Assembly (NCBI GenBank): GCA_029547265.1
Contig: JAKPPP010000426.1
Location: 9,206-73,205 of the forward strand
DNA from: Bacteroidota bacterium
GTDB taxonomy: Bacteria; Bacteroidota; Bacteroidia; AKYH767-A; OLB10
Direction of reading: 5' to 3'
Length of the DNA stretch: 64,000 nucleotides
Shown: positions 2,929-53,840 of the stretch, in pieces
How the letters are laid out: every line of letters begins with the position of its first letter
How positions within the stretch are numbered: position 1 is the first letter of the stretch
The notes under the pieces: model-generated
Databases searched by the model: none
What the model was told of the DNA's origin: nothing
What the model saw: only the letters and a program-made list of their open reading frames with translations
Program-made: the position numbers and the translations under genes

Positions 2929-3051
2929 AGCGAAGAAGTTTATACAACAAATGACATTAAATTACCGGTCATAACCAATAAAATAGAGCAGTTATTTTAT
3001 AAAGTTTTTAACCGAGAATGTTAGTTGAATTAATTGCTTATTTTCGGGCGT

Positions 3052-9234: not shown

Positions 9235-9906
9235 ATGCAGCAACATACTGAAACGGAAGAAAACTACTTAAAGGCCATTTATCACCTTTCTAACGTGACT
9301 ATCAGTTCCGTCAATACTTCATCGATTGCTACTTCTATGTCGACTACATCGGCATCGGTAACCGATATGCTTAAAAAGTTGGCGGATAAGGAATTGATTA
9401 ATTACGAAAAATACAAAGGCGTTAAAATCACTCGTAAGGGTGAAAAAGTAGCTTTAAATATTATTCGTAAGCATCGATTATGGGAGGTGTTTTTAACGAA
9501 GGTTTTGAAGTTTGAATGGGACGAAGTGCATACTATGGCCGAAGAATTAGAACATGTGAGCAGCGACGAACTTATAAAGCGACTTGAAGCTTATCTCGAC
9601 TTTCCAAAATTTGATCCACATGGCGATCCTATTCCTGATCAAACAGGTAAACTTGAAATAAATGATCAGATGTCGCTTTCGAGTGGAGATGCCGGTGTAA
9701 AATATACTATCACAGGAGTTGGAGAACATAGCTCTGCGTTTCTAAAGCATCTAGCTAAATACGGATTAAAGCCGGGTATAACGGTAAGCATAGCCGAAAT
9801 AATGGAATTTGACAAAAGCATGCTAGTGAAAGTAAATAAAGAAAAATTCCATCTCAGTCTTGAAGTTTCTAAAAACATATTGGTAAAGAAATATGGAATC
9901 ATTTAA
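9235..9906 (+). CDS. DtxR/MntR-family metal-dependent transcriptional repressor with C-terminal FeoA/SH3-like domain
   Basis: TEENYLKAIYHL N-terminus, winged-helix region, RKHRLWEVFL dimerisation helix and a C-terminal FeoA-like domain. It overlaps the transporter gene by 14 nt. Confidence 0.85.
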   Translation: MQQHTETEENYLKAIYHLSNVTISSVNTSSIATSMSTTSASVTDMLKKLADKELINYEKYKGVKITRKGEKVALNIIRKHRLWEVFLTKVLKFEWDEVHTMAEELEHVSSDELIKRLEAYLDFPKFDPHGDPIPDQTGKLEINDQMSLSSGDAGVKYTITGVGEHSSAFLKHLAKYGLKPGITVSIAEIMEFDKSMLVKVNKEKFHLSLEVSKNILVKKYGII

Positions 9907-12260: not shown

Positions 12261-13298
12261 TTATTTTAGGAAGTCGCCGAAGTTAGTACTGATAGTAAAG
12301 TGATTACTTCCATCGAATGGTACGTACACGCTTTTAGCGTACGAAAACTGAAACTTACTAATTTTAAATCCTACACCTGCAGTCACTCCCGCAAGGCCTT
12401 TCTTCTCCGACAAAGCCAATTCCTTACGGCGTAAGAAATTATATCCTAATCTAACATTAAAATTCTTAGTGAATAAAACTTCCACATTCAATATTGCATG
12501 ACGGATTAATTTATCACCAAGAGTAATATTCTCTACTTTATTCTCTCCTGTCAATGGATCAATTCCATTTTGATTAGGGTCTTTGTAAGTAATATCGAAT
12601 TTCTGCAACTGTTGACCGATTAACGAAAATCTGAAAGGTGCATTCAACAACTTCTTTGATATTCCTGCTTGAATTTCAAAAGGTAAATCTTCTTTCTCTG
12701 CTCCATCATATTTCTTTAATTGAGTACCGAAATTCTTCGCTACCAAAGTTGCACAGAATAACTTATCGGGATTATAATAAGTCAATGCAACATCTGCAGC
12801 CACTCCGTTAGAAGTATTTCCCTGACCCATATTAGAGAAAATTCCCTTTAAGGTAGTTCCGATATAAAGGTTGCTGTCGAGGGCTTTACTCCAAGTCACT
12901 CCTACTGCATTTTCACTTGCTTTAAAACTGCCGATTTCCATGCTGGTTTCATCGGTTTCTTTAAAGGTTCCATAATTCACGAAATGGAGAAACCCCGCAA
13001 TGGTCCCAAATTTATTTAAGTTATGAGCGTAGATAACATCTCCAAACTTAATTCCTGCTACATGACCGACGTAGCTGATAGAAAGCTGACGATGCATGTA
13101 CGGCTGTAACTGCGAAGGATTCTGCAGTACCAATGATACATCGTCAGCATGTGTTGCAATTGCATTACCGCCTAATCCTGCGGAACGCGCGGGACTAACG
13201 AGATTTAAAAACTCAAACGTATTATTCCCACCCGACTGCCCGTAAACGACAGCAGATGAAAAAACAAACAGAAGAATTGCGAAATATTTAAATCTCAT
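12261..13298 (-). CDS. porQ: Type IX secretion system outer-membrane protein, PorQ-like
   Basis: 345 aa. Signal peptide, then GGNNTFEFLNLVSPARSAGLGGN, the N-terminal motif I associate with PorQ, followed by a beta-barrel-like alternating pattern ending in F-L-K. Confidence 0.6.
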   Translation of the reverse strand: MRFKYFAILLFVFSSAVVYGQSGGNNTFEFLNLVSPARSAGLGGNAIATHADDVSLVLQNPSQLQPYMHRQLSISYVGHVAGIKFGDVIYAHNLNKFGTIAGFLHFVNYGTFKETDETSMEIGSFKASENAVGVTWSKALDSNLYIGTTLKGIFSNMGQGNTSNGVAADVALTYYNPDKLFCATLVAKNFGTQLKKYDGAEKEDLPFEIQAGISKKLLNAPFRFSLIGQQLQKFDITYKDPNQNGIDPLTGENKVENITLGDKLIRHAILNVEVLFTKNFNVRLGYNFLRRKELALSEKKGLAGVTAGVGFKISKFQFSYAKSVYVPFDGSNHFTISTNFGDFLK

Positions 13299-16446: not shown

Positions 16447-17397
16447 ATGAAAAACAGAATTACTGAATTATTCAAAATCAAATATCCGATTATCCAAGCA
16501 GGAATGATTTGGTGCAGCGGATGGAAATTAGCATCGGCGGTAAGTAATGCCGGAGGACTCGGAATTATTGGTGCGGGATCGATGTATCCTGAAGTATTAA
16601 GAGAGCATATTCAGAAATGTAAAGCGGCCACAAATCATCATTTTGCAGTGAATTTGCCTTTGCTTTATCCGAATATCAACGAACATATTTCCATTATAAT
16701 TGAAGAGAAAGTTCCAATTGTTTTCACCTCGGCCGGAAATCCAGCCACATGGACTAAGCACTTAAAAGACCAAGGTATAACTGTTGTTCATGTTATAGCG
16801 AATACAAAATTTGCACTTAAAGCAGAGGCAGCGGGTGTTGATGCAATTGTTGCTGAAGGATTTGAAGCCGGAGGACATAATGGTAGAGAAGAAACAACAA
16901 CACTTTGTTTAATTCCTTTGATTAAAGACACAGTTAAAATTCCGGTAATTGCAGCAGGTGGAATTGGTGATGGAAGAGCAATGATGGCATGCTTTGCATT
17001 AGGAGCGGAAGCCGTACAAATAGGATCAAGATTTGTGACGAGTATAGAATCATCAGCACATGATAATTTCAAAAACATAATCGTCAATAGTAAAGAAGGA
17101 GATACATTGCTTACAATGAAAGAACTTACTCCTGTACGATTAATTAAAAACAAGTTCTATAAAGAAATTGAAGCAGCAGAAGAACGAGGTGCGAGTCTTG
17201 AAGAAATCAAAGAAATACTAGGTCGCGCTCGAGCGAAAAAAGGCATGTTCGAAGGAGATCTTGATGAAGGAGAATTAGAAATCGGACAAGTATCAGCCAA
17301 CATCAATGAAGTAAAACCAGCAGGAGAAATTGTTCGAGAAATTTGGAATGATTTTATTAAAACACAACAACAAATTGCTGCAATTAATGCAGACTAG
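16447..17397 (+). CDS. Nitronate monooxygenase / FabK-like NAD(P)H-dependent flavin oxidoreductase
   Basis: YPIIQAGMIWCSG, EGFEAGGH and IAAGGIGDGR motifs of the NMO (2-nitropropane dioxygenase) family. Confidence 0.75.
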   Translation: MKNRITELFKIKYPIIQAGMIWCSGWKLASAVSNAGGLGIIGAGSMYPEVLREHIQKCKAATNHHFAVNLPLLYPNINEHISIIIEEKVPIVFTSAGNPATWTKHLKDQGITVVHVIANTKFALKAEAAGVDAIVAEGFEAGGHNGREETTTLCLIPLIKDTVKIPVIAAGGIGDGRAMMACFALGAEAVQIGSRFVTSIESSAHDNFKNIIVNSKEGDTLLTMKELTPVRLIKNKFYKEIEAAEERGASLEEIKEILGRARAKKGMFEGDLDEGELEIGQVSANINEVKPAGEIVREIWNDFIKTQQQIAAINAD

Positions 17398-17402
17398 ATA
17401 AT

Positions 17403-18644
17403 ATGTTACACTACGAAAAATTCACTCTTGAAAATGGACTAACTGTCATTGTTCACGAGGATAAAAGCACACCATTGGTTGCTTTAAATATACTCTATAA
17501 AGTAGGTGCAAGAGATGAAGACCCAGACAAAACCGGATTTGCACATTTATTCGAGCACTTAATGTTTGGAGGTTCTATCAATATTCCGAATTACGACGAG
17601 CCGTTGCAACTTGCGGGAGGAGAAAACAACGCATTTACAAACAACGATATTACCAACTATTACCTAACAATTCCTGCTACTAATTTAGAGACCGCTTTTT
17701 GGTTAGAATCAGACAGAATGTTAAGCCTTGCATTTACCGAGAAGAGTTTAGAAGTGCAACGAAATGTAGTAATTGAAGAATTCAAACAACGCTATTTAAA
17801 TCAACCATATGGTGACGTATGGCTAAAACTTCGTCCCTTAGCTTATAAAGTGCATCCCTACCAATGGGCTACCATCGGAAAAGTCACTGAACATATTGAA
17901 GAAGCCACTTTGGATTATGTTAAAGCCTTCTTTAAAAAATGGTATGCACCCAACAATGCAGTGATGACGATTGCAGGAAATTGCAGTCTGGAAAGAGCTA
18001 AAGAATTGTGCAACAAATGGTTTACACCTATTCCGGCGGTTAATGTCCCGGTAAGGGATCTACCTAAAGAGCCTGTGCAGACCGAAATGAGAGAATTAAA
18101 TGTCAGCAATGACGTTCCAACCGATCATATTTATTTAGCATTTCATTGCTGTTCGAGATACGATTCCGATTTTTACGCAACTGACTTATTATCAGATGTT
18201 TTATCGAGAGGAAAATCATCGAGGATGTACCAAAAATTGGTAAAAGAACAGAAATTATTTACTGATATCGGTGCCTATATGATGGGGGAACTCGACGAAA
18301 GCTTATTTGTAGTAGAAGGCAAATTAGTCAACGGAATTTCCATTGAATCTGCAGAAAATGCAATTTTCGACATATTAGAAACAGCAAAAACGGATGTTTC
18401 AGAAACCGAATTATTGAAGGTTAAAAACAAAGCTCTAGCATCTTTAGTATTTTCAGAAATGAGTATTGGCAACAAAGCACTCAACCTCGCCTACTTTGAA
18501 ATGCTTGGAAATGCAGACATGGCAAACCAACAAGAAAATCTATATAATTCAGTTAGTAGTGACCAAATTAAGGCCATTGCTAAAAGAATACTAGTAAAAT
18601 CAAATTGTTCAATTTTAAGATATCAGGCTAAACAACATGCTTAA
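17403..18644 (+). CDS. M16-family zinc peptidase (catalytic subunit)
   Basis: Inverted zinc motif HLFEHLMF (HxxEH) with a downstream E. About 410 aa. Confidence 0.85.
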   Translation: MLHYEKFTLENGLTVIVHEDKSTPLVALNILYKVGARDEDPDKTGFAHLFEHLMFGGSINIPNYDEPLQLAGGENNAFTNNDITNYYLTIPATNLETAFWLESDRMLSLAFTEKSLEVQRNVVIEEFKQRYLNQPYGDVWLKLRPLAYKVHPYQWATIGKVTEHIEEATLDYVKAFFKKWYAPNNAVMTIAGNCSLERAKELCNKWFTPIPAVNVPVRDLPKEPVQTEMRELNVSNDVPTDHIYLAFHCCSRYDSDFYATDLLSDVLSRGKSSRMYQKLVKEQKLFTDIGAYMMGELDESLFVVEGKLVNGISIESAENAIFDILETAKTDVSETELLKVKNKALASLVFSEMSIGNKALNLAYFEMLGNADMANQQENLYNSVSSDQIKAIAKRILVKSNCSILRYQAKQHA

Positions 18645-19908
18645 CAGAACCATATCACCAGAAATCCCTAAACCGGAAAAAATCAGTATTCCCGAGCCTG
18701 AAATCACCACCTTGGAGAATGGCATCCCATTATTCAAAGTTAATTTAGGAACCCAAGATGTTATAAAAGTTGAACTTGTTTTTGATGCGGGAATCAATTA
18801 TTCAACTGCACCATTAATAGCTAATGCCACGAACGATATGTTAGATGAAGGAAGTGGCATCTATTCTTCAGCGCAAATAGCAGAAATGCTTGACATGTAT
18901 GGTGCTTATTTCCAAACTGACTGCGGCAACGATTTTGCTTCAGTTACACTCTACTCGCTAAGTAAATTCATCGATCAAACGCTTCCAATTTTCAATACAA
19001 TCGTAAGTGAACCGAATTTCGATAAAAACGAAATTTCAACATTCGCCATACAAGGAAAGCAAAGGTTGGCAGTTAGTTTAAACAAAGTTGATTTTCTGGC
19101 AAGAAGAAACTTCTTAAATTCTATTTATGGGGAAAACACAATTGTAGGAAAAATGGTAAAAGCTGAACATTATGATGCTTTAAACCATGATACATTATCA
19201 AATTTTTACAATGATCGATATAAGAAAGGATTAAAAGCAGTTGTAGTAGCCGGGAAGTTTACCAATGAAAATATTGAGTCAATTAAATCTCTTATTAAGA
19301 GCCTTGGTTTCAGTAAAAACGACTCGACAAATATCAATTCAGAAATTATATTAAATCCTGAAAAAATATATATAACTAAAAAAGACAGTGTTCAATCTGC
19401 AATAAGAATCGGTAAAAAGATGTTTAATCGAAAACACCCCGATTACTTCAGTTTTTCGATATTAAACACTGTCTTAGGTGGATATTTCGGATCGAGGTTG
19501 ATGTCGAACATTCGGGAAGATAAAGGATATACTTATGGCATAGGATCGGGGCTCGCAACCAACCTAAAAGATGGCTACTTTTTCATATCAACGGAAGTCG
19601 GATCTGACGTTTGTAAAGACGCTATCAAAGAAATTTACTTTGAAACCGAGCGTTTGAGAAACGAAAAAATACCAACAGATGAACTCCGCTTAGTTAAGAA
19701 CTATTTGTTCGGTGCCTTCCAAAGAAGTATTGATGGACCATTTGCGCTAGCCGATAGACAGAAATCACTTTACCTCAACTCACTAACAAACAGTCACTTA
19801 GAGCAATATTTGACTATATTAGCGGAAATTACCCCTGAAAAGCTGTTAGAATGCGCCCAAAAGCACCTTGACCAATCCTTGTTTACAGAGGTAGTTGTCG
19901 GACCATAA
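18637..19908 (+). CDS. M16-family peptidase, non-catalytic partner
   Basis: Overlaps the previous gene by 8 nt. M16-like size and C-terminal-domain pattern (R/Y pair region GGYFGSRLMSNIREDKGYTYG), but no HxxEH motif. Confidence 0.7.
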   Translation: MLNRTISPEIPKPEKISIPEPEITTLENGIPLFKVNLGTQDVIKVELVFDAGINYSTAPLIANATNDMLDEGSGIYSSAQIAEMLDMYGAYFQTDCGNDFASVTLYSLSKFIDQTLPIFNTIVSEPNFDKNEISTFAIQGKQRLAVSLNKVDFLARRNFLNSIYGENTIVGKMVKAEHYDALNHDTLSNFYNDRYKKGLKAVVVAGKFTNENIESIKSLIKSLGFSKNDSTNINSEIILNPEKIYITKKDSVQSAIRIGKKMFNRKHPDYFSFSILNTVLGGYFGSRLMSNIREDKGYTYGIGSGLATNLKDGYFFISTEVGSDVCKDAIKEIYFETERLRNEKIPTDELRLVKNYLFGAFQRSIDGPFALADRQKSLYLNSLTNSHLEQYLTILAEITPEKLLECAQKHLDQSLFTEVVVGP

Positions 19909-19913
19909 TTTTT

Positions 19914-19945
19914 TTTGCACATTTAATAATTTCTTCATAAGTTTG
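19914..19945 (+). promoter_or_regulatory. Bacteroidota sigma-A promoter: -33 TTTG (19914-19917) and -7 TAagTTTG (19938-19945)
   Basis: Both elements are exact with a 20-nt spacer. The ATG of the giant gene is at 19971. Confidence 0.55.
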
Positions 19946-19970
19946 GCCTACACGCTTGACCAAAACAACT

Positions 19971-22900
19971 ATGAAAAAATTATTAACGCTTTTACTCCTA
20001 TTCTTTACAATAGGGGTAGTTGACAGCTATGGATCTCACCTGATGGGAGGTGAAATCACATGGATATGCCAACGCACCGGGCCTAATACGGGTCGGTTTA
20101 AATTTACGGTAAAGCTTTACCGTGACTGTAACGGAATCTCAGCGCCTCCGTCTGTATCCTTATCATCAAATGCGCCAGGCTTGGGGGGTGGCGTGTTTTG
20201 TAATCAGGTTTCGGTATTAGACTTATCTCCTGTTGGGCCGGGTTGTCCAACATGTGCAGTTCCCGGAGGAAAACCCAATGCCGTGCTCGAATGTATTTAC
20301 GAGTCATCGTTTATTAATATCACCGGAGTACCACCTGCAACAGGTTGGTATTTTTCATATTCAGATTGTTGTAGAAATGGAGTAACAAATCTGGCAAATA
20401 CTGGATCAGGATATTTTACTTTAAGAGCATTGATGTTTCCATATAATGCTACAAACACTAATCCATGTTACGATAATTCACCACGTTTCGCTGAGCGTCC
20501 TCAATTGGCGACAATGATTGGTAATCTTACCACTTATTCTGCCAACGCAGTTGATGAAGATGGTGATTCATTACACTATGATTGGGGACAACCATTAGAC
20601 GGGTCATCATTTGCATCAAGTACAAATTATCCGTTTGCTGCTAATTATACTTATCAAACACCTTTACCAAATCCTATACAAAATCCATTAAACCAATCAG
20701 CAACATTAGATCCCAATTCAGGTACTGTTACTTTCACTCCGTTCACAGTTGGATCATTTGTAACTGTTACTAAAGTTAGCTCATTTCGTTGCGGGATAAA
20801 AATTGCAGAAGTATATCGAGAAATTCAAATTTCGTTATTACCGAGTGTAATTGTTGCTAATAACACCGGTTTAACTATTGGTAATACCCCTCCGGATATT
20901 AATGCAGTTGTACTACCACCCTCTTTTCAATCTTATGGAGTAAATCAATTTGTGGATACCGTATTTGCGGGGGATACGGTAAAACTGCCAATAACTGCCT
21001 ATGATTTTGAGCATGTCACAACAAATCCCACTTCTGCATTTCAATCTGTTTCATTCGACGTAACGGGAATAGAATTAGATGCAACGGAGACAGCGAATAC
21101 AGGCGCATGCCCATTTGCACCTTGTGCATATGTTGATAAAGCCGTACCAACTCCTTACACAATTGCTGCCGCCTCGATTCAATTTAATTGGGTTACTGAC
21201 TGTAATCACTTAGCAAAAACTGTAGGATGTATTAGTTTAAAGAATACTTATAATTTCGTTGTAAAAGCACTTGACAATTTCTGTCCTTCGCCATCGGTAA
21301 ACTTCTACACCTTCTCCATAGTTGTAGTTGCCCCTCCGGAAATGGATCCGTCGCTAATTTATTGTGCAGATGTTCAATCCAATGGAAATGTTACTTTAAC
21401 ATGGGATATTCCATCTGATACGGGAGTAGTTGATACAAATAAATATTTCCATAAACATTACATCTATCGTTCTGTTGCAAATGGTCCGTTTGCACTACTC
21501 GATAGCGATAGCGTAATAACTAATTTATCGTATACTGATTTAACGGCTAATGCAAATACAGGTTCAATCCGTTATTATTTGGAAACAAAATCAGGATGTG
21601 ATTTAAGAGCACGTCAACAATCGGATACCATATCAACAATGTTTTTGCAAGTTTCTCAAGTAGGAACTAATGCAAGTTTAACGTGGAATCCACTAGATGT
21701 TCCAAATCCAATAGGATCTCATAGTAAATATTATATCTATAAAGAAACTCCTGTAGGATCAGGGACATTTGTATTGCTTGATTCAACATCAGCAACAACA
21801 TATTTAGATCCTGTAACCGTATGTAATGACTCAATCAATTACTATATTCGTTTACATAACGACATTAGAAATTGTGATTCAAAATCAAATATTGAAGGTG
21901 CACAATTACAAGCTGCAGCACCGGTAATAAATCCTCCATCACTAAGATGTGTTAGTGTATTGCCAAATGAAGATATTCAAATCAGCTGGGTAGGAACTAC
22001 CGATACCGCATCATATTTTAGTAGCTACGAAGTATATCATTCATTAAGTTTAGGAGGACCTTATACATTAGTGGGATCAGTAACTAACTATGCGGCCAAT
22101 ACTTTCACTCATGTTGGAGCACAGGGAAATTCACAACCTCATTACTATCATGTAACTACAAAAGCAGGATGTGATGCTACAACAGTTACTGAATCAACTA
22201 CAACATCAGCCAACCTTTGTTCAATGAAATTAAACTTGAACAATGCAAATGTCGGATTTGCAGATTTAACTTGGAATGCTATTAGTACTCCTCTTCCTGC
22301 TACTTCAGTTGGATTGTATTCTGTTTACAGACGAGTAACGCCAACGGTTGCATGGACTTTAAGAGGTACTACTGCTAACTTAACCTTTAGAGATACAGTA
22401 ACTCTTTGCGATACTATTATTGAATATAAAGTTACTATTGATGATGCATCAGGATGCATTTCCACATCATCAGATTCAGCAGCTCGATTCACTTCACAAG
22501 GAGATATTATTGCGAATCCATCTTTAAGATGTTTAGCGGTTCAAGCAAATGGTGATGTACAATTATCTTGGTTAGCGCCAAGTGATCCTGATAATTTCTT
22601 CTCTAAATATGAAGTGTATTCATCATCAAATGCCGCAGGCCCTTTTACCTTAGTAGGTACAGTTAATACTTACAATGCAGGTGGATTTCTTCATACCGGA
22701 GCCGGCGCAAATTCAGGAAGTAAATATTATTATGTAAAAACCTATTCAGGATGTACAGGTTTAGCGGACAATGGTAGTACTAGCGATACATTAAAAACAA
22801 TGTATCTAACAGTAAATAACGCTACATTAGGATCTGCTATTCTTACTTGGAATGCTATGCACAATCCTGCATTGCCTAGTGCTGCCGCAACTTATACTAT

Positions 22901-25900
22901 TAAGAAACGAGCAACGGGAGTTGGAGGATATACTACAGTTGGCACTACTTCTAACCTGACTTATACCGACAATATTTCTGTATGTAATGATCCGTTAGAA
23001 TATATTGTAGAATTAACTGATAACGCTCCGTGTACTTCAGTTTCTTCTGCTGCAAATGCAACCTTCACCTACTTAGGAAATGTTATCAATAATCCTGATT
23101 TAAGATGTCTTAGCGTTCAAAATAACGGACAAATACTATTATCGTTTATTCCTCCTGCAGGTGCTTCAACCAACTTCAACGAATATGAAATTTGGAGAGA
23201 TGACGGAACTGGATTTGTGAAATATGATTCCGTTTCAACATTTGGTGCGTTAAATTATACTGACATTAATGCAAACGGTAATAACCAATCATATAGCTAT
23301 TACATGTTATCTCAGTCGGGTTGTACCGGACAAGTTAACAGTTTAGCTAACTCACAAACTTTAAGTTCAATTTACTTAACTACCACTCCGGTTCTAGGAC
23401 AAGCTAACTTAAATTGGACTGGTTTAGCAGCAACTATCCCTGTAACTAGTACAACAGGACAATATGATATCTATTCTTCTTATAATGCAGGAGGTTCATT
23501 GCAATTGTATGGAGATACAAATAAGTTAGTTTACTCTCAGCCGATTGTAAATTGCGATACTACATTACGTTACCAAATCAAATTAGTAGATAATAGCGGA
23601 TGCGTATCAACTTCAAATGTTGATACAAACGACTACACGTATATTGGTAACATCATTAACAATCCTGATTTACGATGCGTAAGTGTTCAAAACAACGGAC
23701 AAATCGTACTGAATTATCTTGCTCCATCGGGTTCATCGGCCGATTTCAATGAATATGAAATCTGGAGAGATAACGGAACAGGTTATGTGAAATACGATTC
23801 AATTTCAACGTTTGGAAACGGATCTTATACAGATATCTCGGCGAATGGAAATAATCAGTCGTACGGTTATTACATGTTGACCCAATCGGGTTGTACCGGA
23901 CAAGTTAACAGTGCTTCGAATTCGCAAACGTTAAATTCAATTTACTTAACAACTACACCTGTACTTGGTCAAGCAAATCTAAATTGGACTGCGCTAACCA
24001 CACCTATTCCAGTAACGAGTACAACTGGTCAGTATGATATATTCTCATCATATAATGCAGGAGGAAGTTTACAATTATATGGAGACACAAACAAATTGGT
24101 GTATTCTCAACCGATTTCTAACTGTGATACAACATTACGCTACCAAATCAAATTGGTAGATAATAGTGGATGTATTTCAACATCAAATGTTGACACTAAC
24201 GATTATACATACATAGGTAATGTCATTAATAATCCTGATTTACGATGTGTAAGTGTTCAGAATAACGGACAAATCGTATTAAATTATCTTGCTCCATCAG
24301 GCTCATCAGCCGATTTCAATGAATTTGAAATATGGAGAGATAATGGAGCAGGTTATGTGAAATACGATTCAGTTTCAACATTTGGAAACGGAACCTATAC
24401 AGATATCAATGCGAACGGTAATAACCAATCCTATGGTTATTACATGTTGACACAATCAGGTTGTACAGGACAAGTAAACAGCACATCGAACTCACAAACA
24501 TTAAATTCGATTTATTTGACAACTTCTCCTGTTCTAGGGCAAGCGAATTTAAATTGGACTGCATTATCGACCCCTATTCCTGCAACTAGTACTACGGGAC
24601 AGTATGACATTTATTCATCATACAATTCAGGTGGTAGTTTGCAATTATATGGCGACACTAACAAATTGGTGTATTCCCAACCTATATCAAACTGTGATAC
24701 AACATTACGCTACCAAATTAAATTAGTCGATAATAGCGGGTGTATTTCAACATCGAATGTTGACACCAACGATTATACATACATTGGAAATGTAATTAAC
24801 AATCCGGATTTACGATGCGTGAGTGTTCAGAACAACGGACAAATCTTGTTGAACTTTATTCCTCCTGCAGGCTCATCGGCCGATTTCAATGAATTTGAAA
24901 TTTGGAGAGATAACGGTGCGGGATATGTGAAATATGATTCTATTTCAAGTTACACTGCTACTACTTACACAGATATCAATGCGAATGGAAATACCCAAAC
25001 GTATGGATACTATATGTTAACGCAATCGGGTTGTACAGGACAAGTAAACAGTGCCTCAAATTCGCAATCATTAAATTCTATTTATTTAACGACTACTCCT
25101 GTACTAGGGCAAGCGAATTTAAATTGGACGGCCTTATCTACTCCTATTCCTGCTACAAGTACTACGGGACAGTATGATATTTATTCATCATACAATTCAG
25201 GTGGTAGTTTACAATTATTTGGTGACACTAACCAATTGTTATATTTCCAGCCGGTTTCTAACTGTGATACTACACTACGCTACCAAATTAAATTAGTAGA
25301 TAATAGCGGATGTATTTCAACATCAAATGTTGATACAAACGACTATACCTATATAGGTAATGTAATTAATAATCCGGATTTACGATGCGTGAGTGTTCAG
25401 AATAATGGCCAAATTCTATTGAACTTTATTCCTCCGGTAGGATCATCAACTGATTTCAACGAATTTGAAATTTGGAGAGATAATGGAACGGGATATGTGA
25501 AATATGATTCTATCTCAAACTACTCAGCTACAACATACACAGATATTAATGCGAATGGAAATAACCAATCGTATGGATATTACATGTTAACGCAGTCAGG
25601 ATGTACAGGACAAGTAAATAGTGCATCGAATTCGCAATCATTAAATTCGATTTACCTGACTTCAACACCGGTACTTGGACAAGCGAATTTAAATTGGACG
25701 GCGTTATCGAGCCCATTACCGGGGACAAGTGTTACCGGTCAATATGACATTTTTACGTCTTACAATGCTTCAGGAAACCTTCAAATTTTAGGCGACACGA
25801 ATCAATTAGTGTACTTTGAAGGAATCAATAACTGCGACACAACATTACGTCATCAAGTTAAAGTGACAGACAATAGCGGTTGCGTATCTGTATCGAATGT

Positions 25901-28900
25901 CGACACTAATTTATTTACGTATATCGGAAATGTAATTAACAATCCTGATTTACGTTGCGTAAGTGTACAAAGCAACGGTCAAATTGAATTGAGTTTCATT
26001 CCTCCTAGTGGATCCAATATAAACTTCAATGAATATGAAATTTGGAGAGATAATGGTACCGGATATGTGAAATACGACTCTGTATCGACATTTGGAGCTG
26101 TAAATTATACGGATATAAATGCCAACGGAAACAATCAATCATACGGATATTATATGTTAACACAATCGGGTTGTACCGGGCAAGTTAACAGTACGTTGAA
26201 TTCGCAATCATTAAATTCGATTTACTTAACCACAACACCTGTATTAGGAACTGCGAATTTAAATTGGACAGCATTATCATCTCCATTACCGGGAAGCAGT
26301 ACAACAGGTCAATACGATGTATACTCATCTTATAATTCTGCAGGCACGCTTCAATTCTTCGGTGACACGACTCAATTAGTATATTCACAACCTATTCAAA
26401 ATTGTGATACTACTTTAAGATATCAAATTAAAGTAGTTGACAACAGTGGGTGTATTTCAACTTCAAATGTTGACACTAACCTATATACATATATCGGAAA
26501 TGTGATTGACAATCCAGAGATGAGATGTGTAACTGTAAATTCACCTAGCGGACAAACACAATTAACTTGGGTTAACCCAACTCCAACAAGTTGGATTAAC
26601 TTCAACCAATACGACTTATACCGAAACACCGGATCTGGATTTACATTGATTGACTCAGTTCAATCGAATGGTATTACTAGCTATACTGATGTAAATGCAA
26701 ACGGATATAACGGTTCAGTAAGTTACTACTTGGTTACAAAATCGGGTTGTACCGGTAAAGTAGACAATGGAACGTTAGGTAACGCAATTAGTTCACTCTA
26801 CCTAAAAGTAACCGGAGGAAATACAACAACGGCAACTTTAAATTGGAATGCACCATCAAACCCATTATTACCTACCTCATCGGGTAGTTATTTAGTGGAA
26901 CGCCAACAACCTGCCGGAACAGGAACATGGACGACAGCTGCTAACGTAACCACAACATCATTTACTGAGCCATTAACATTATGTATCGATTCAGTAAACT
27001 ATAGAGTTAGTATAAATGATAATATTGGATGTACATCAATGTCGAATTATGATGGAGAAACATTTGTAGATCATACAATACCGGTTTCGCCTTCATTAAG
27101 ATGTGCATCGGTTCAAACTAACGGAGATGTAGTATTAAATTGGGTTGCACCTGTAGATACCGGAATGAAGTTCGGCAGCTATTTGATTTACTCATCGAAT
27201 AATGTGAATGGGCCATTCAATGCAATTCAAAACATCACAAATTACAATACAACAACCTACACACATGTTGGTGCTAATGCTCAAAATCAAAGTGTATATT
27301 ATTACATTTTAACAAAAACAGCATGCGGAGGTGAAGTATCACCTGTATCTGACACATTAAAAACAATGAAAGTTAATGTGATTAATAATAACGGAGTCGC
27401 AGTTATCAGATGGAATCCATTACATGACCCTGAATTAAGCACAGCTACTCAGTCATATAATGTACACAAAGAATACCCAACCGGAGTATGGAATGTAATT
27501 GGAACTACAACTGCTCCTGATTATATTTGGTATGATACGATTAACGTTTGTTCGGCAATAATTAATTACTTTGTTTCAACCGGAGATGCTTTAGGATGCG
27601 GATCAAATTCATCAACTGATGGGGACTTATTCAAAGACATCACTAAACCGACAGTTTCGTTACTTGATACCGTTAGTATTGATACTGCAACACAAAGTAT
27701 AGTATCTATAAGCTGGTTGCCTAGCCCTAGCGGTGATGTTGAAGGATATATCTTATATCATTTCAATGGAGCTTCATGGGATTCAATCGGATCTGTTTAT
27801 GGAATAAACACTAATAGCTTCCAAATTACTGACCCTTCAGTTCAATCGGGGCCACAACTTTATAGCATTACTGCTTATGATAGCTGCTTAAACAGAAGTA
27901 ATATTGGATCTGCACATTCTACTCTATTCCTCAAAGCGAAATTGGATGTATGTAAATATGCCATCGACTTACAATGGAATCCGTATATTAATATGGTTGG
28001 AGGTATATCTCAATACAATATATATGCTTCAGAAAATGGAGGACCATTTACACTTTTGGCAAGCGTTCCTTCAAACAATATTACTTATAGCCATAATACG
28101 TTAAACAATCATTCTTATTATTGTTACTATGTACAAGCTGTAGGAAATGTAGCCGGAAGAACATCAACATCAACTAGAGCATGTGCTACCGCAGATCTAT
28201 TAACTTTGCCAACTTACGGATATGTTAGAAAGGCTACAGTAATAGACGATCGACGAGTACTTGTTACAGCTTATGTAGACACAACAGATCAACCTGATGT
28301 AAGTAAATACAAATTGCAGCGCGCTTTCGATAAAGGAGGTCCGTTTACAACTGTAGGAGTTCAATCATACACTGGAAATCCGGATTTAACATTTGCTGAT
28401 TTCACTGCCAGAACTGATCAGTATAGCTACTACTACCGACTAGTTACAGTTGATTCATGTGGGAATGAAGTACTGAAAAGTAACATGGCTAGAACGATCT
28501 TATTGAGCGGTCAGGCACGATACAACCTAACCAATGAATTGAAATTCAATGATTACAGTGAATGGTTAGGAGGAGTAAACAACTATGCATTGTTTAGAAA
28601 AGTTGATGATGTTTGGCAAACAGCTCCTGCAGCTATTCTGCCTTTTGGACAACAAACGTATATGGATGATGTGTCATCAATTTACCAAACATCAGGTAAA
28701 TTCTGTTATCGAGTTGAAGCTTATGAAGGTGCCGGAAATATGTATGGGTACACAGATACAAGCTCATCGAATGAATTCTGTTTAATTCAAGAACCTCATT
28801 TGTTTGTGCCAACTGCATTTACTCCCGGAGGTAAAAACACCATATTTAAGCCTGAATATATCTTCATTGATGCTAAAAACTACTTCTTTGTAGTATTTAA

Positions 28901-29066
28901 TAGATGGGGACAAAAAGTATATGAATCACGAGTTCCGGGCGAAGGCTGGAACGGTGAATTTGATGGTAAAATCGCTCCTGAAGGGACGTATGTGTACACA
29001 GTTCGAATTTTTGGTACCAACGGTCAGGAGATTGAAAAGAGCGGATCCGTAACTCTGTTGCGGTAA
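19971..29066 (+). CDS. Giant cell-surface repeat protein with T9SS type-B (gliding-motility-associated) C-terminal sorting domain
   Basis: 3,031 codons from the ATG at 19971 (MKKLLTLLLLFF signal peptide; the track's TTG at 19956 adds 5 aa). The C-terminus FTPGG...VVFNRWGQKVYES...GWNGEFDG...GTYVYTV...GSVTLLR fits the type-B CTD pattern. The body is made of reiterated Ig/FN3-like modules. Confidence 0.9.
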   Translation: MKKLLTLLLLFFTIGVVDSYGSHLMGGEITWICQRTGPNTGRFKFTVKLYRDCNGISAPPSVSLSSNAPGLGGGVFCNQVSVLDLSPVGPGCPTCAVPGGKPNAVLECIYESSFINITGVPPATGWYFSYSDCCRNGVTNLANTGSGYFTLRALMFPYNATNTNPCYDNSPRFAERPQLATMIGNLTTYSANAVDEDGDSLHYDWGQPLDGSSFASSTNYPFAANYTYQTPLPNPIQNPLNQSATLDPNSGTVTFTPFTVGSFVTVTKVSSFRCGIKIAEVYREIQISLLPSVIVANNTGLTIGNTPPDINAVVLPPSFQSYGVNQFVDTVFAGDTVKLPITAYDFEHVTTNPTSAFQSVSFDVTGIELDATETANTGACPFAPCAYVDKAVPTPYTIAAASIQFNWVTDCNHLAKTVGCISLKNTYNFVVKALDNFCPSPSVNFYTFSIVVVAPPEMDPSLIYCADVQSNGNVTLTWDIPSDTGVVDTNKYFHKHYIYRSVANGPFALLDSDSVITNLSYTDLTANANTGSIRYYLETKSGCDLRARQQSDTISTMFLQVSQVGTNASLTWNPLDVPNPIGSHSKYYIYKETPVGSGTFVLLDSTSATTYLDPVTVCNDSINYYIRLHNDIRNCDSKSNIEGAQLQAAAPVINPPSLRCVSVLPNEDIQISWVGTTDTASYFSSYEVYHSLSLGGPYTLVGSVTNYAANTFTHVGAQGNSQPHYYHVTTKAGCDATTVTESTTTSANLCSMKLNLNNANVGFADLTWNAISTPLPATSVGLYSVYRRVTPTVAWTLRGTTANLTFRDTVTLCDTIIEYKVTIDDASGCISTSSDSAARFTSQGDIIANPSLRCLAVQANGDVQLSWLAPSDPDNFFSKYEVYSSSNAAGPFTLVGTVNTYNAGGFLHTGAGANSGSKYYYVKTYSGCTGLADNGSTSDTLKTMYLTVNNATLGSAILTWNAMHNPALPSAAATYTIKKRATGVGGYTTVGTTSNLTYTDNISVCNDPLEYIVELTDNAPCTSVSSAANATFTYLGNVINNPDLRCLSVQNNGQILLSFIPPAGASTNFNEYEIWRDDGTGFVKYDSVSTFGALNYTDINANGNNQSYSYYMLSQSGCTGQVNSLANSQTLSSIYLTTTPVLGQANLNWTGLAATIPVTSTTGQYDIYSSYNAGGSLQLYGDTNKLVYSQPIVNCDTTLRYQIKLVDNSGCVSTSNVDTNDYTYIGNIINNPDLRCVSVQNNGQIVLNYLAPSGSSADFNEYEIWRDNGTGYVKYDSISTFGNGSYTDISANGNNQSYGYYMLTQSGCTGQVNSASNSQTLNSIYLTTTPVLGQANLNWTALTTPIPVTSTTGQYDIFSSYNAGGSLQLYGDTNKLVYSQPISNCDTTLRYQIKLVDNSGCISTSNVDTNDYTYIGNVINNPDLRCVSVQNNGQIVLNYLAPSGSSADFNEFEIWRDNGAGYVKYDSVSTFGNGTYTDINANGNNQSYGYYMLTQSGCTGQVNSTSNSQTLNSIYLTTSPVLGQANLNWTALSTPIPATSTTGQYDIYSSYNSGGSLQLYGDTNKLVYSQPISNCDTTLRYQIKLVDNSGCISTSNVDTNDYTYIGNVINNPDLRCVSVQNNGQILLNFIPPAGSSADFNEFEIWRDNGAGYVKYDSISSYTATTYTDINANGNTQTYGYYMLTQSGCTGQVNSASNSQSLNSIYLTTTPVLGQANLNWTALSTPIPATSTTGQYDIYSSYNSGGSLQLFGDTNQLLYFQPVSNCDTTLRYQIKLVDNSGCISTSNVDTNDYTYIGNVINNPDLRCVSVQNNGQILLNFIPPVGSSTDFNEFEIWRDNGTGYVKYDSISNYSATTYTDINANGNNQSYGYYMLTQSGCTGQVNSASNSQSLNSIYLTSTPVLGQANLNWTALSSPLPGTSVTGQYDIFTSYNASGNLQILGDTNQLVYFEGINNCDTTLRHQVKVTDNSGCVSVSNVDTNLFTYIGNVINNPDLRCVSVQSNGQIELSFIPPSGSNINFNEYEIWRDNGTGYVKYDSVSTFGAVNYTDINANGNNQSYGYYMLTQSGCTGQVNSTLNSQSLNSIYLTTTPVLGTANLNWTALSSPLPGSSTTGQYDVYSSYNSAGTLQFFGDTTQLVYSQPIQNCDTTLRYQIKVVDNSGCISTSNVDTNLYTYIGNVIDNPEMRCVTVNSPSGQTQLTWVNPTPTSWINFNQYDLYRNTGSGFTLIDSVQSNGITSYTDVNANGYNGSVSYYLVTKSGCTGKVDNGTLGNAISSLYLKVTGGNTTTATLNWNAPSNPLLPTSSGSYLVERQQPAGTGTWTTAANVTTTSFTEPLTLCIDSVNYRVSINDNIGCTSMSNYDGETFVDHTIPVSPSLRCASVQTNGDVVLNWVAPVDTGMKFGSYLIYSSNNVNGPFNAIQNITNYNTTTYTHVGANAQNQSVYYYILTKTACGGEVSPVSDTLKTMKVNVINNNGVAVIRWNPLHDPELSTATQSYNVHKEYPTGVWNVIGTTTAPDYIWYDTINVCSAIINYFVSTGDALGCGSNSSTDGDLFKDITKPTVSLLDTVSIDTATQSIVSISWLPSPSGDVEGYILYHFNGASWDSIGSVYGINTNSFQITDPSVQSGPQLYSITAYDSCLNRSNIGSAHSTLFLKAKLDVCKYAIDLQWNPYINMVGGISQYNIYASENGGPFTLLASVPSNNITYSHNTLNNHSYYCYYVQAVGNVAGRTSTSTRACATADLLTLPTYGYVRKATVIDDRRVLVTAYVDTTDQPDVSKYKLQRAFDKGGPFTTVGVQSYTGNPDLTFADFTARTDQYSYYYRLVTVDSCGNEVLKSNMARTILLSGQARYNLTNELKFNDYSEWLGGVNNYALFRKVDDVWQTAPAAILPFGQQTYMDDVSSIYQTSGKFCYRVEAYEGAGNMYGYTDTSSSNEFCLIQEPHLFVPTAFTPGGKNTIFKPEYIFIDAKNYFFVVFNRWGQKVYESRVPGEGWNGEFDGKIAPEGTYVYTVRIFGTNGQEIEKSGSVTLLR
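21345..27086 (+). repeat. Zone of ten consecutive ~190-195-aa coding modules, each starting (N)P(x)(L/M)(R/I)(Y)C; an eleventh begins at about 27090
   Basis: Module anchors lie at about 21345, 21929, 22515, 23091, 23661, 24231, 24801, 25371, 25941, 26511 and 27090. Each module has four conserved Cys and two Trp-centred halves. Outer modules are diverged. Confidence 0.75.
23088..26507 (+). repeat. Six near-identical in-frame tandem repeats of exactly 570 bp (190 aa)
   Basis: The NNPDLRC codons start at 23088, 23658, 24228, 24798, 25368 and 25938, and the next (diverged, DNPEMRC) module starts at 26508. The period is exactly 570 nt each time. Many differences between copies are at third codon positions. 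Confidence 0.9.
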
Positions 29067-29085
29067 TTTTCCGGTCAACGCGTGA

Positions 29086-29117
29086 AAGGTCACCTCCCCA
29101 AGGTGGCCTTTTTTTAT
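29086..29117 (+). terminator. Rho-independent terminator of the giant gene
   Basis: AAGGTCACC / GGTGGCCTT stem (one G.U pair), 7-nt loop (TCCCCAA), then TTTTTTTATT. It starts 20 nt after the stop. Confidence 0.65.
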
Positions 29118-29125
29118 TATCTTTG
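29118..29125 (+). promoter_or_regulatory. -7 box TAtcTTTG upstream of guaB
   Basis: Exact TAnnTTTG, 35 nt before the ATG at 29153. No -33 TTTG found. Confidence 0.3.
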
Positions 29126-30814: not shown

Positions 30815-32854
30815 ATGAAAAAAGCCATAATTCTTCCTTTACTGGCTAGTATTATTATCTCAGTTAATAACCCGGTAGAAGGTCAAACCAAGCCAAAAGC
30901 TCCTGTTAAACCGGCAAAACCTGCAGTTGCAGCAGTATCTACTCCTGCACCGATAACCGATCCTATTTTGATGACTATTGGCGGTGAGTCAATACCAAAG
31001 TCGGAATTTGAGCGTGTTTATCGCAAGAACAACAAAGACAGCGTATACACTGAATCTGCGATTCGTGAGTACCTTGACTTGTATGTTAACTACAAATTGA
31101 AAGTGAAAGAAGCTGAAGCCATGAAATTGGATACCAGCGAATCATTTCAAACAGAGTTAGCAGGATATAGGAAGCAGCTTGCGCAACCTTATTTAACTGA
31201 TAAAAATGTTAGTGAGAAATTAGTTCGCGAAGCATATGATCGTCTTAACAAAGATGTACGAGCAAGTCATATACTTATTAAATTAAATCCTGATGCTCTA
31301 CCTAAGGATACAATTGCGGTGTATAATCGTATGTTAAAAATCAGAGAGCAAATCCTTAAAGGAACTGATTTCGCAAAAGTTGCTCGCGATTCAAGTGAAG
31401 ATCCTTCAGCTAAAGATAATGGTGGCGATTTAGGCTATTTTACAGGAATGCAAATGGTTTACCCATTTGAAACAGTTGCATATACAACAAAACCGGGACA
31501 GATTTCCATGCCAGTTCGTACTCGCTTCGGATTCCACATTATCAAAACTATTGATATTCGTCCGGCGCAAGGAGAAGTTCATGCAGCACACATTATGGTT
31601 CGTTTACCAAAAGATGGGAACGATAGCGTAATTGCAGATGCAGAAGGCAAAATCAAAAAAGCTTTAGCAGAATTAAAAGCAGGACAACCTTGGGATTCAG
31701 TTGTAACAAAATACAGCGAAGACAAAGGATCTGCTAAGAAAGGCGGAGAATTGCCTTGGTTCGGAACTGGCAGAATGGTCCCTGAATTTGAAAAAGCAGC
31801 ATTTGCGCTAAAAGCTGATGGAGAATATTCTGATATCATAAAAACGTCATATGGATGGCATATCATAAAACGTCTTGAAAAACGTGGAGTAGCATCATTC
31901 GATGAGAAGAAAGGTGAACTTCGCCAAATGATTTCACGGGATAGTCGCAATGAGTCGAGTAGAACATCAATGGTTAACAAAATTAAAGCTGAATACAAAT
32001 TCAAAGAGCTTCCAAAAGCTAAAGATGAGCTAATTGCGATTCTTGATACCACACTTTCAAACGGTGATTGGGATTTAACAAAAGCAGATAAGTTTAGCAA
32101 GAATTTATTCTCGTTAACGGATTCAAAAGGTGTTGTAACTAATTATACTCAACAAAACTTTGCAACTTACATCTCAACACATCAAACAAAACGTGCGGGA
32201 AGTAATCCTCAAGTTATCGGATACAGCATGTACGATCAATGGAATCAAGATGAGTGTTTAGCATATGAAGAAGCACGTTTAGACGGAAAATATATTGATT
32301 TCAAAAACTTGATGAAAGAATACCGCGATGGAATTTTATTATTCGACCTTACAGATAAAATGGTATGGAGTAAAGCGGTAAAAGATACTGACGGATTACA
32401 GACGTACTACGACAACAATAAGAACAATTACTTATGGGGAGAAAGGTGTGAGGCAACTACCTACTCTTTCCCTAACGATGAGGTGGCAAATAATTTCCGA
32501 AAACAATTGAAGAAAGGAAAGAAAAGTGTTGATGAAATCATGACCGAAATTAATAAAACCAACACTAATGGAGTTACAAAACGTGATGGCAAATACGCTC
32601 ATGGAGAGAATGAAGTAATTGAAAAAACCGGATGGAAAACCGGATTAAGTGAAAACATTAAATTCTTGAGTCAAACCTACATCGTAGATATGTACAAGAT
32701 TCTTCCTGTTACACCTAAATCATTAGAAGAAACTAAAGGTGCAATTACTGCCGATTTCCAAACGTATCTTGAAAAAGAATGGATCAGCAGCCTACGCAAT
32801 AAATATCCTGTACAGATCAATAACGACATCCTTCAGTCGATCTGGAAGAAATAA
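30815..32854 (+). CDS. Periplasmic peptidylprolyl isomerase with two parvulin (PpiC-type) domains
   Basis: Signal peptide MKKAIILPLLASIIISV. Two rotamase units: ASHILIK...GGDLGYF...FGFHIIK and AAHIMVR...GGELPWF...YGWHIIK. The ATG at 30815 is preferred over the TTG at 30794. Confidence 0.8.
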   Translation: MKKAIILPLLASIIISVNNPVEGQTKPKAPVKPAKPAVAAVSTPAPITDPILMTIGGESIPKSEFERVYRKNNKDSVYTESAIREYLDLYVNYKLKVKEAEAMKLDTSESFQTELAGYRKQLAQPYLTDKNVSEKLVREAYDRLNKDVRASHILIKLNPDALPKDTIAVYNRMLKIREQILKGTDFAKVARDSSEDPSAKDNGGDLGYFTGMQMVYPFETVAYTTKPGQISMPVRTRFGFHIIKTIDIRPAQGEVHAAHIMVRLPKDGNDSVIADAEGKIKKALAELKAGQPWDSVVTKYSEDKGSAKKGGELPWFGTGRMVPEFEKAAFALKADGEYSDIIKTSYGWHIIKRLEKRGVASFDEKKGELRQMISRDSRNESSRTSMVNKIKAEYKFKELPKAKDELIAILDTTLSNGDWDLTKADKFSKNLFSLTDSKGVVTNYTQQNFATYISTHQTKRAGSNPQVIGYSMYDQWNQDECLAYEEARLDGKYIDFKNLMKEYRDGILLFDLTDKMVWSKAVKDTDGLQTYYDNNKNNYLWGERCEATTYSFPNDEVANNFRKQLKKGKKSVDEIMTEINKTNTNGVTKRDGKYAHGENEVIEKTGWKTGLSENIKFLSQTYIVDMYKILPVTPKSLEETKGAITADFQTYLEKEWISSLRNKYPVQINNDILQSIWKK

Positions 32855-33762
32855 TGATTAAAAAAAAATATCAAAAACAGGCAGATTGTTTGATATCCCC
32901 GATATTCGCGGGTATCGCAGTTTGCCTGTTTTTATTTTCTTCGTGCAATAAATTCAAGAGTAACGAACCTGTAGCGTCCGACAAAGTAATCGCGAGAGCT
33001 TTCGATAAGTATCTTAAACTCGAAGACATCAGGAATATTGTTCCGAAAGGAACATCGAAAAACGATAGTATTACCATCATTCGAAATTTTGTTGAAAATT
33101 GGGTACAACAACAAGTGGTACTTAAGAAGGCCAACGACAACCTCGATGATGAAAAGAAAAATGTAGAGCAAAAACTCGAAGAATACAGGAACTCTTTAAT
33201 TACGTATATTTACGAAAGAGAACTGATCCGTCAAAAGCTCGATACTTCAATATCTGAAAGTGATATTGAAAAGTATTACAATGAAAATCCGAATAATTTT
33301 CAATTAAAAGACAATATCATCAAAGTAATCTACTTTAAGATTCCAAAGAATGCTCCGAAAATCGATAAAGTAAAAAGCTGGTATCGCTCTGAAAATCCTA
33401 AGGAACGCAAACAACTAGAAGAGTACTGTTATCAGTTTGCCTCCGACTATTATTTCAATGAAGAAGAATGGTTGTTATTTGATGATCTTTTGAAGAAAGT
33501 CCCTATTGAGACTTACGACAAAGAGCAGTTCTTAAAGAACAATCGGTACATTGAAATTCCCGACTCGAACGCTGTTTATTTTGTAAATATCAAAGGATTT
33601 AAAATAAAAGAAAGTCAATCTCCGTTAAGTTTCGAGAAAGAAAATATCCGTAATCTTATTATTAACAAACGTAAGTTGGATTTAATTAATGAAATGCAAA
33701 AAGCAGCTTACGAAAATGCACTTAAAGACAATGAAGTGGAGATCTGGCTCCCCAAAAAATAA
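32854..33762 (+). CDS. Lipoprotein with SurA-N/PpiD-like chaperone character and no parvulin domain evident
   Basis: The start overlaps the previous stop by 1 nt (TAATG). Lipobox LFSSC. Helical, Lys/Glu-rich, and sits between two PPIase genes. The family call is weak. Confidence 0.45.
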   Translation: MIKKKYQKQADCLISPIFAGIAVCLFLFSSCNKFKSNEPVASDKVIARAFDKYLKLEDIRNIVPKGTSKNDSITIIRNFVENWVQQQVVLKKANDNLDDEKKNVEQKLEEYRNSLITYIYERELIRQKLDTSISESDIEKYYNENPNNFQLKDNIIKVIYFKIPKNAPKIDKVKSWYRSENPKERKQLEEYCYQFASDYYFNEEEWLLFDDLLKKVPIETYDKEQFLKNNRYIEIPDSNAVYFVNIKGFKIKESQSPLSFEKENIRNLIINKRKLDLINEMQKAAYENALKDNEVEIWLPKK

Positions 33763-53726: not shown

Positions 53727-53840
53727 CGCTGTAAAGGTAAATAAAACATAAAAACGAGAGATGTGATAAGGAAACAACCTAAAAAAAAGTAAAAATGTTA
53801 AACCATTGTTAAATTCATACATGATTCACCAAACAGCGAA

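Follow-up and report, generated by a model that had tools for sequence, protein, structure and literature searches.

A 3,031-residue Bacteroidota protein with a predicted type B sorting domain and a stalk of paired FN3-like domains

Results

The locus and its gene

Our analysis concerns a single giant gene in a 64,000-nucleotide stretch of DNA from a Bacteroidota bacterium (contig JAKPPP010000426.1 of assembly GCA_029547265.1); this whole stretch is called the window below, and coordinates refer to it unless another locus is named. An open frame runs from 19956 to 29066 on the forward strand, and translation from the ATG at 19971 gives 3,031 codons and a stop, as had been proposed in an initial annotation made from the sequence alone. 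M16 peptidase genes lie upstream and guaB downstream, and the composition of the locus is unremarkable (GC 0.36-0.40). The five-part architecture described in that annotation was borne out by translation, alignment and profile scans, which place a predicted Sec signal peptide, a cysteine-rich head, eleven repeated modules (M1 to M11), a tail and a C-terminal domain (CTD) resembling the sorting signals of the T9SS (type IX secretion system) in succession (Table 1).

Table 1. Features of the giant gene and of its predicted signals, in window coordinates
Feature	Coordinates	Strand	Residues	Basis and remarks
Bacteroidota-type promoter motif, predicted (-33 TTTG, 19914-19917; 20-nt spacer; -7 TAAGTTTG, 19938-19945)	19914..19945	+		direct reading and exact pattern match
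Coding sequence of the 3,031-aa protein, stop included	19971..29066	+		open reading frame and translation; ratio of nonsynonymous to synonymous substitution rates (dN/dS) 0.045 overall against the orthologue at locus L081 (see text)
Sec signal peptide, predicted (MKKLLTLLLLFFTIGVVDSYG before SH...)	19971..20033	+	1-21	read from the translation
Head, 437 aa, Cys-rich, predicted chain of cadherin/Ig-like beta-sandwiches; holds DEDGDSLHYDW	20034..21344	+	22-458	AlphaFold2 (AF2) and Foldseek
M1, predicted di-FN3	21345..21929	+	459-653	alignment and module profile
M2, predicted di-FN3	21930..22514	+	654-848	alignment and module profile
M3, predicted di-FN3	22515..23090	+	849-1040	alignment and module profile
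M4, first of six close 570-nt copies	23091..23660	+	1041-1230	alignment, DNA repeats and module profile
M5	23661..24230	+	1231-1420	alignment, DNA repeats and module profile
M6, modelled copy	24231..24800	+	1421-1610	AF2 and Foldseek
M7	24801..25370	+	1611-1800	alignment, DNA repeats and module profile
M8	25371..25940	+	1801-1990	alignment, DNA repeats and module profile
M9	25941..26510	+	1991-2180	alignment, DNA repeats and module profile
M10	26511..27086	+	2181-2372	alignment and module profile
M11	27087..27665	+	2373-2565	alignment and module profile
Tail, 375 aa, four FN3-like domains forming two degenerate modules	27666..28790	+	2566-2940	module profile
T9SS type B sorting domain	28791..29063	+	2941-3031	Pfam match at aa 2946-3029, nt 28806-29057
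Intrinsic-terminator-like hairpin (12-bp stem, 29084-29112; 5-nt loop), then T-run	29084..29118	+		sequence reading

The gene appears to have transcription signals of its own, as had been claimed. TTTG and TAAGTTTG separated by 20 nt form the Bacteroidota -33/-7 consensus, and the copy in front of the gene lies inside the 62-nt gap 3' of the upstream gene. Window-wide the motif is found three times against 2.9 expected, which is the level of chance. Of 14 related loci, however, 9 have it at the same position 5' of the orthologous gene, with diverged sequence separating its two elements, and this conservation of position supports a real promoter, whose function is predicted. Behind the stop codon, the terminator attributed to the gene takes the form of a hairpin and a T-run.

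Genomic search with the N-terminal domain located an independent copy of the locus (L081 in our numbering of loci) in "Bacteroidetes bacterium nzgw130", a metagenome-assembled genome (MAG). Gene order there is that of the window, the guaB products are 99% and the M16 peptidases 94% identical, and the orthologue is colinear with the window protein, with the same 3,031 residues and 11 modules and a single 1-aa alignment offset. The two proteins are identical at 88.8% of head positions, 89-98% of module positions, 95.5% of tail positions and 97.8% of CTD positions. At a dS of ~0.85 (Nei-Gojobori method), dN/dS is 0.060 in the head, 0.050, 0.044 and 0.028 in the module groups, 0.028 in the tail and 0.032 in the CTD, to be compared with 0.048 for the flanking M16 peptidase and 0.010 for guaB. 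Every part of the 3,031-residue protein is under purifying selection, the head being the fastest-evolving; positive or diversifying selection on the head is ruled out, since its dN/dS, the highest of any part, is still strongly purifying. The 9.1-kb gene is real and constrained.

The sorting domain and the tail

At the extreme C-terminus, the CHU_C model (PF13585) matches at 42.2 bits, against a cutoff of 27, over profile positions 3-86 of 86. From NCBIfam the protein has a single sorting-domain match, to TIGR04131 and below its cutoff, and the Pfam and NCBIfam scans of the protein returned neither a type A sorting domain (PF18962, TIGR04183) nor an enzyme domain. Apart from an fn3 match described below, the remaining whole-protein Pfam matches were taken as repeat-inflated noise, no stretch passing alone. 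When the C-terminal 191 residues were compared with PDB sequences, the single match was the CTD of GhpA (E 0.0019). At the other end of the protein, the N-terminal Sec signal peptide that belongs to a type B substrate can be read from the translation by eye, with a KK n-region, a hydrophobic core and small residues at -3 and -1, and is conserved in homologues, which have S/T/A-H directly after an AxA-like site. The preference of the initial annotation for a type B over a type A CTD, for which an hmmscan had been proposed, thus stands after that scan, and by sequence definition the protein is a type B T9SS substrate.

The region between the modules and the CTD had been described as about 450 residues of related single domains. 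FN3-like domains are indeed what it is predicted to contain, but it spans 375 residues and is itself a degenerate pair of modules, which the module profile matches twice, with E 6.5e-9 over aa 2576-2738 and with E 4.6e-8 over aa 2767-2861. The only Pfam fn3 match in the protein also falls here (aa 2659-2731) and is sub-threshold, at 22.8 bits against 25; the isolated tail has no Pfam match at E up to 10. With two FN3-like domains in each of the 11 modules and four in the tail, the predicted total is about 26, in a protein of about 30 beta-sandwich domains.

The repeated module

Regular-expression and alignment analysis resolved 11 modules of 190-195 aa, where at least 11 had been announced, and the four cysteines said to be conserved proved invariant. 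They occupy module positions 6, 78, 155 and 171 and belong to a set of 15 invariant columns, which also includes W109 in the second domain. This is the sole invariant Trp; of the two Trp-centred halves originally described, the second contains it, and in the first the Trp changes column from module to module.

M4 to M9 are 75-94% identical to one another at the protein level. The remaining five show 28-43% identity to any other module, from which we conclude that the module itself is ancient and that the central part of the array expanded later. In the DNA, M4 to M9 keep an exact 570-nt period, with copies 73-85% identical to the reference copy and 71-86% identical pairwise; the period is longer than the 500-nt limit of Tandem Repeats Finder, and the array was recovered by a repeat search. 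M4, M7, M8 and M9 pair one-to-one with their positional L081 orthologues at the nucleotide level. M5 and M6 (23661-24800) share 85.6% nucleotide identity within the window versus 83.2% and 85.4% with their positional L081 orthologues, a pattern that suggests local gene conversion or later duplication.

The AF2 model of M6, built on the alignment of the 11 modules (pLDDT 90.0, pTM 0.85), has 14 beta-strands in two sandwiches, each half conforming in the prediction to the seven-strand FN3 beta-sandwich. In Foldseek searches of the PDB, the top 50 matches were overwhelmingly tandem FN3 pairs (probability 1.0, E ~1e-6), among them cytokine receptors, integrin beta4, neogenin, LAR and titin. The modelling that the initial annotation had recommended thus recovers its two FN3-like halves and shows no new fold: the module is predicted to be a tandem FN3 pair. 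At the sequence level it belongs to no named family, as had been noted, isolated modules having no Pfam match at E up to 10, fn3 included, and no NCBIfam match; nor did the module profile find a significant sequence match in the PDB.

Among 589 homologous modules, the cysteine patterns are CCCC in 438, -C-- in 59, C-CC in 54 and -CC- in 23. A second feature of the modules concerns possible modification. The motif D-[ST]-[AILVMT] is the O-glycosylation motif of Bacteroidota, and it occurs 33 times in the protein (19971-29063), where shuffled sequences have 13 +/- 3.3. Every central module has a conserved pair of sites, at module positions 46 and 156, and these figures hint at a glycosylated stalk.

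The N-terminal head

The head contains 15 Cys, and its AF2 model (26-sequence alignment; pLDDT 84.6, pTM 0.84) is all-beta. Its best Foldseek matches in the PDB, at E 2e-5 and probability 1.0, are to extracellular cadherin (EC) repeats, alongside other Ig-like chains; TM is low, as expected with a multi-domain query. The DEDGDSLHYDW motif, which had been called Ca-site-like, lies in the domain that Foldseek places with cadherin repeats, and the head alignment contains six invariant Asp; motif and residues fit a cadherin-like, possibly Ca-binding domain, a result consistent with the original description and no proof of Ca binding. The isolated head has no Pfam match at E up to 10 and no significant PDB sequence match, whether searched as a sequence or as a profile.

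The mature N-terminus (20034-20063) reads S-H-L-M-G-G-E-I-T-W, and the His at mature position 2, near-invariant in almost all head-bearing homologues, is a possible metal site. A histidine brace like that of lytic polysaccharide monooxygenases was considered and ruled out on two grounds: the signal-peptidase sites of the homologues consistently place the His second in the mature chain rather than first, and the fold of the head finds its matches among cadherins.

The family and its genomic slot

Searched against 1.84 billion representative proteins, the module profile gave 4,228 matches at E <=1e-3 (clusters at 50% identity), 1,458 at 1e-10 and 388 at 1e-30. Architectures were counted in the best 150 of the 4,228. 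The commonest of these, in 76 proteins of ~680 aa, is a signal peptide followed by one module, the tail and the CTD; the next, in 19 proteins of ~1,110 aa, has the head in addition, and giants of 2,000-6,455 aa also occur. Over the same 150 representatives, the tail is present in 134, the CTD is matched in 128 and the head is kept as a unit in 36. All 120 homologues among the matches listed carry PF13585, many of them together with a precomputed PF00041. The databases give the family generic names only, for example "gliding motility-associated C-terminal domain protein", "T9SS type B sorting domain-containing protein" and "hypothetical". On these profile counts, the module family is large and unnamed.

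The head gave 389 genomic matches in GTDB species representatives, and those among the matches listed all lie in MAGs of uncultured Bacteroidota. A few of these records carry the name of a cultured taxon. The Bacteroidota loci L002, L103 (CALQEU02), L082, L141, L059 and L071 are filed under Bifidobacterium breve, Chitinophaga pinensis or Candidatus Nomurabacteria, and these oddly named MAG records are probably mis-binned or mislabelled.

Many of these MAGs keep a common slot, in which a nitronate-monooxygenase-like (NMO) gene and two M16 genes are followed by a gene X with 1 or 11 modules and, in part of the cases, by guaB. Complete head-bearing orthologues, most of them in the M16-X-guaB slot, have 1, 4, 5, 6, 7, 8, 9, 10 or 11 canonical modules, so that the window copy stands at the top of the range; judged from these sequences, stalk length is an evolvable parameter. 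The upstream linkage of the NMO gene and the M16 pair, seen at 16447-19908 in the window and at orthologous loci (L081, L161 and others), extends to M16 identities as low as ~40%, and that of guaB downstream is less constant. A functional link between the giant protein and the M16 pair was considered, and nothing beyond synteny supports it.

The same ~440-aa head also occurs in paralogues of ~600 aa, where a single Ig domain and a CTD of type A (PF18962, 32.7 and 37.5 bits) replace the FN3 stalk and the type B CTD behind it, for example at 9809-11719 of locus L116, which is again from nzgw130, and at L109, L111, L113-L115, L148, L153 and L156. Since it is found on type A and type B CTDs, one and the same lineage would use both T9SS sorting routes for the head, and in this comparison it behaves as an independent functional unit. 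Type A cargo genes adjoin orthologues, and together with the type A paralogues they offer indirect support for a T9SS in the lineage.

The surrounding genes

Scans of the rest of the window covered most open reading frames (ORFs) of 120 aa or longer as far as nt 53822 and found housekeeping genes, with no T9SS core gene among them. Four ORFs had no Pfam match at the thresholds used: 4441-6564 (-, 706 aa), 12261-13298 (-, 344 aa), 32854-33762 (+, 302 aa) and 42379-43152 (+, 257 aa), the third of which lies between two genes for PPIC/SurA-type chaperones. At 9235-11770 (+), an Nramp transporter whose C-terminus is fused to a universal-stress-protein domain comes after a DtxR/MntR-type repressor that contains a FeoA domain. 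The two seem to form an ordinary unit for Mn/Fe uptake, in which the fusion is of a less common kind.

Discussion

To our knowledge, there are few type B T9SS substrates and they have been poorly characterised: nearly the whole experimental record comes from SprB, GhpA and a small number of Flavobacterium johnsoniae proteins. The window protein is a well-formed and uncharacterised example of this known kind rather than a new system. The T9SS takes proteins with a type B CTD across the outer membrane, where they stay bound to PorP/SprF-like barrels (PMC9143113), and we think it probable that the window protein is a fibrillar surface adhesin with a stalk of variable length, exported by Sec and the T9SS and anchored by a PorP-like protein. 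First, Sec would export the precursor, with cleavage of the signal peptide before Ser22. Second, the T9SS would recognise the C-terminal type B CTD and move the protein across the outer membrane. Third, a PorP/SprF-family shuttle in the outer membrane, encoded elsewhere in the genome, would hold the CTD. The protein would then be displayed as a fibril, in which a stalk of 26 FN3 domains projects the cadherin-like, Cys-rich and probably Ca-binding head from the cell and the head, at the fibril tip, binds a ligand. At ~3.5 nm per FN3 domain, an extended stalk could reach a length of around 100 nm.

No gene for a cognate PorP/SprF shuttle adjoins the window gene or lies beside the L160 and L161 orthologues, which would make the protein an 'orphan' type B substrate. 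Adjacency is not obligatory, since in F. johnsoniae a sprF-like gene adjoins nine of twelve type B substrates and the three orphans share an orphan shuttle, Fjoh_1677 (PMC12618676), and a pathway of that kind is what we propose here. Those three proteins (Fjoh_1123, Fjoh_1720, Fjoh_4934) likewise have a signal peptide and a type B CTD, are predicted adhesins and have no adjoining PorP/SprF-like gene, implying a shuttle encoded elsewhere. The likeness consists of the signal peptide, the CTD and the orphan status, whereas the head and the di-FN3 module of the window protein were found only in uncultured Bacteroidota.

Several observations weigh against an anchored adhesin. No PorP/SprF gene turned up among the ORFs scanned, which were the majority of those with 120 aa or more as far as nt 53822, ORFs beyond that position not having been scanned. 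The TIGR04131 match to the CTD scores 30.4 bits, under the NCBI cutoff of 35. The head has no sequence relative of known function detectable by PDB sequence and profile searches, and it is the architecture by itself that suggests the term 'adhesin'; the protein and its close homologues are known solely from sequences and predicted structures. The inter-domain geometry of the M6 model fits no solved FN3 pair well (TMq 0.33-0.41), which makes the estimate of extended length uncertain, and the fibril could be shorter. Finally, the co-occurrence of cysteines in homologous modules fits neither a C1-C2/C3-C4 nor a C1-C4/C2-C3 pairing cleanly.

A role in gliding, which had been raised in the initial annotation, would have the CTD load the fibril on the helical gliding track, so that the protein propels the cell as a mobile adhesin. 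SprB of F. johnsoniae (6,497 aa) is, like the window protein, a giant, repetitive and beta-rich type B substrate, displayed as a surface filament anchored by a PorP-family protein (PMC9143113), and type B proteins other than SprB can move on the track, as do Fjoh_4750 and, in part, the Fjoh_1123 CTD (PMC12618676). It is the CTD that sets the final destination, and only some type B substrates join the track; others, such as Fjoh_3952, are static (PMC12618676). In the window, the Pfam scan of the protein at E <=1 detected no SprB repeat (PF13573), the repeat unit being instead a predicted four-Cys FN3 pair, and the M16 peptidase and guaB flanks take the place of a sprC/D/F-like neighbourhood. 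Without SprB repeats, a sprCDBF-type operon or an adjacent sprF-like gene, the window protein is, by its sequence, not SprB, and we regard a gliding adhesin as unlikely.

A different kind of appendage is offered by GhpA of Aureispira, a T9SS substrate of 5,898 aa with 52 Ig-like repeats and disulfides that link neighbouring domains and rigidify its stem (bioRxiv 10.1101/2024.01.29.577165). Among solved structures the CTD of GhpA (PDB 9flp and related entries) is the one sequence relative, and it is the sole PDB match of the C-terminal 191 residues of the window protein; the GhpA stem of many Ig-like domains also has conserved Cys. The four Cys kept in every window module may, by this analogy, staple the stalk as the inter-domain disulfides of GhpA do, and the 23 homologous modules that keep only C2 and C3 are compatible with inter-domain bonds. 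Several chains side by side, as in the heptameric assembly of GhpA, could then form a rigid, disulfide-stabilised 'grappling hook', with the cadherin-like head catching prey cells, flagella or particles. However, neither the PDB search nor the module profile found similarity to GhpA outside the CTD, guaB lies downstream where GhpA has PorP/PorE (ghpB/C-like) genes, and most orthologues are short, with a single module that gives no hint of a stem of great length, rigid and multimeric. We consider such an appendage improbable. If it were true, there would be a second, sequence-unrelated T9SS 'grappling hook' family, in uncultured freshwater/groundwater Bacteroidota, with a reach set by the number of modules (1-11).

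It is just as doubtful that the protein is secreted by the T9SS and then shed, to cross-link cells or polymers as a component of a matrix or biofilm. The architecture would be the same as that of an anchored adhesin, and T9SS cargo can be released, as RemA and AmyB are (PMC12618676), but release in the studied cases is a behaviour of type A CTDs, and cargo with a type B CTD is retained at the cell surface (PMC12618676, PMC9143113). The suspicion that the gene is non-functional, either a decaying pseudogene or an assembly artefact of the kind to which long internal repeats are prone, is effectively refuted by a frame unbroken over 9.1 kb, by the 11-module, 3,031-aa gene in an independent MAG, by dN/dS of 0.03-0.06 at dS ~0.85 and by repeat copies that are merely 71-86% identical in DNA and therefore assemble unambiguously.

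For an anchored adhesin with a variable stalk, parallels in organisation are offered by the periscope proteins and fibrillar adhesins (PMC8201768, PMC9210967), which likewise combine an N-terminal head, a stalk of tandem beta-sandwich domains that differ in number from one related genome to another and a C-terminal anchor. Those proteins are anchored by sortase, whereas T9SS/PorP anchoring is proposed for the Gram-negative protein described here. The repeats of periscope proteins are near-identical in DNA and vary in number between strains. In the window the copies are only 71-86% identical in nucleotide sequence and the same 11 are present in two genomes separated by dS ~0.85, which may be too diverged and too stable for that pattern, so that length would change on an evolutionary timescale and not from strain to strain. 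The fold predicted for each half-module is shared with the tandem FN3 pairs of cytokine-receptor modules, integrin beta4 and neogenin, from which the modules differ in having no Pfam fn3 sequence match, four invariant Cys per pair and an inter-domain geometry that reaches TMq <=0.41 at most.

The current understanding of the T9SS is unchanged by these results, whose value is descriptive and lies in the definition of domain families and in annotation. The locus adds a clean and strongly constrained type B example from an uncultured lineage, and two large unnamed families are defined from it, the four-Cys di-FN3 module (at least 4,228 clusters at 50% identity) and the ~440-aa cadherin-like head. 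The slot orthologues, which differ only in the length of the stalk (1-11 modules), and the presence of one head on type A and type B signals amount to a natural experiment, with which one could study the part played by stalk length and by anchoring route in the function of T9SS surface proteins.

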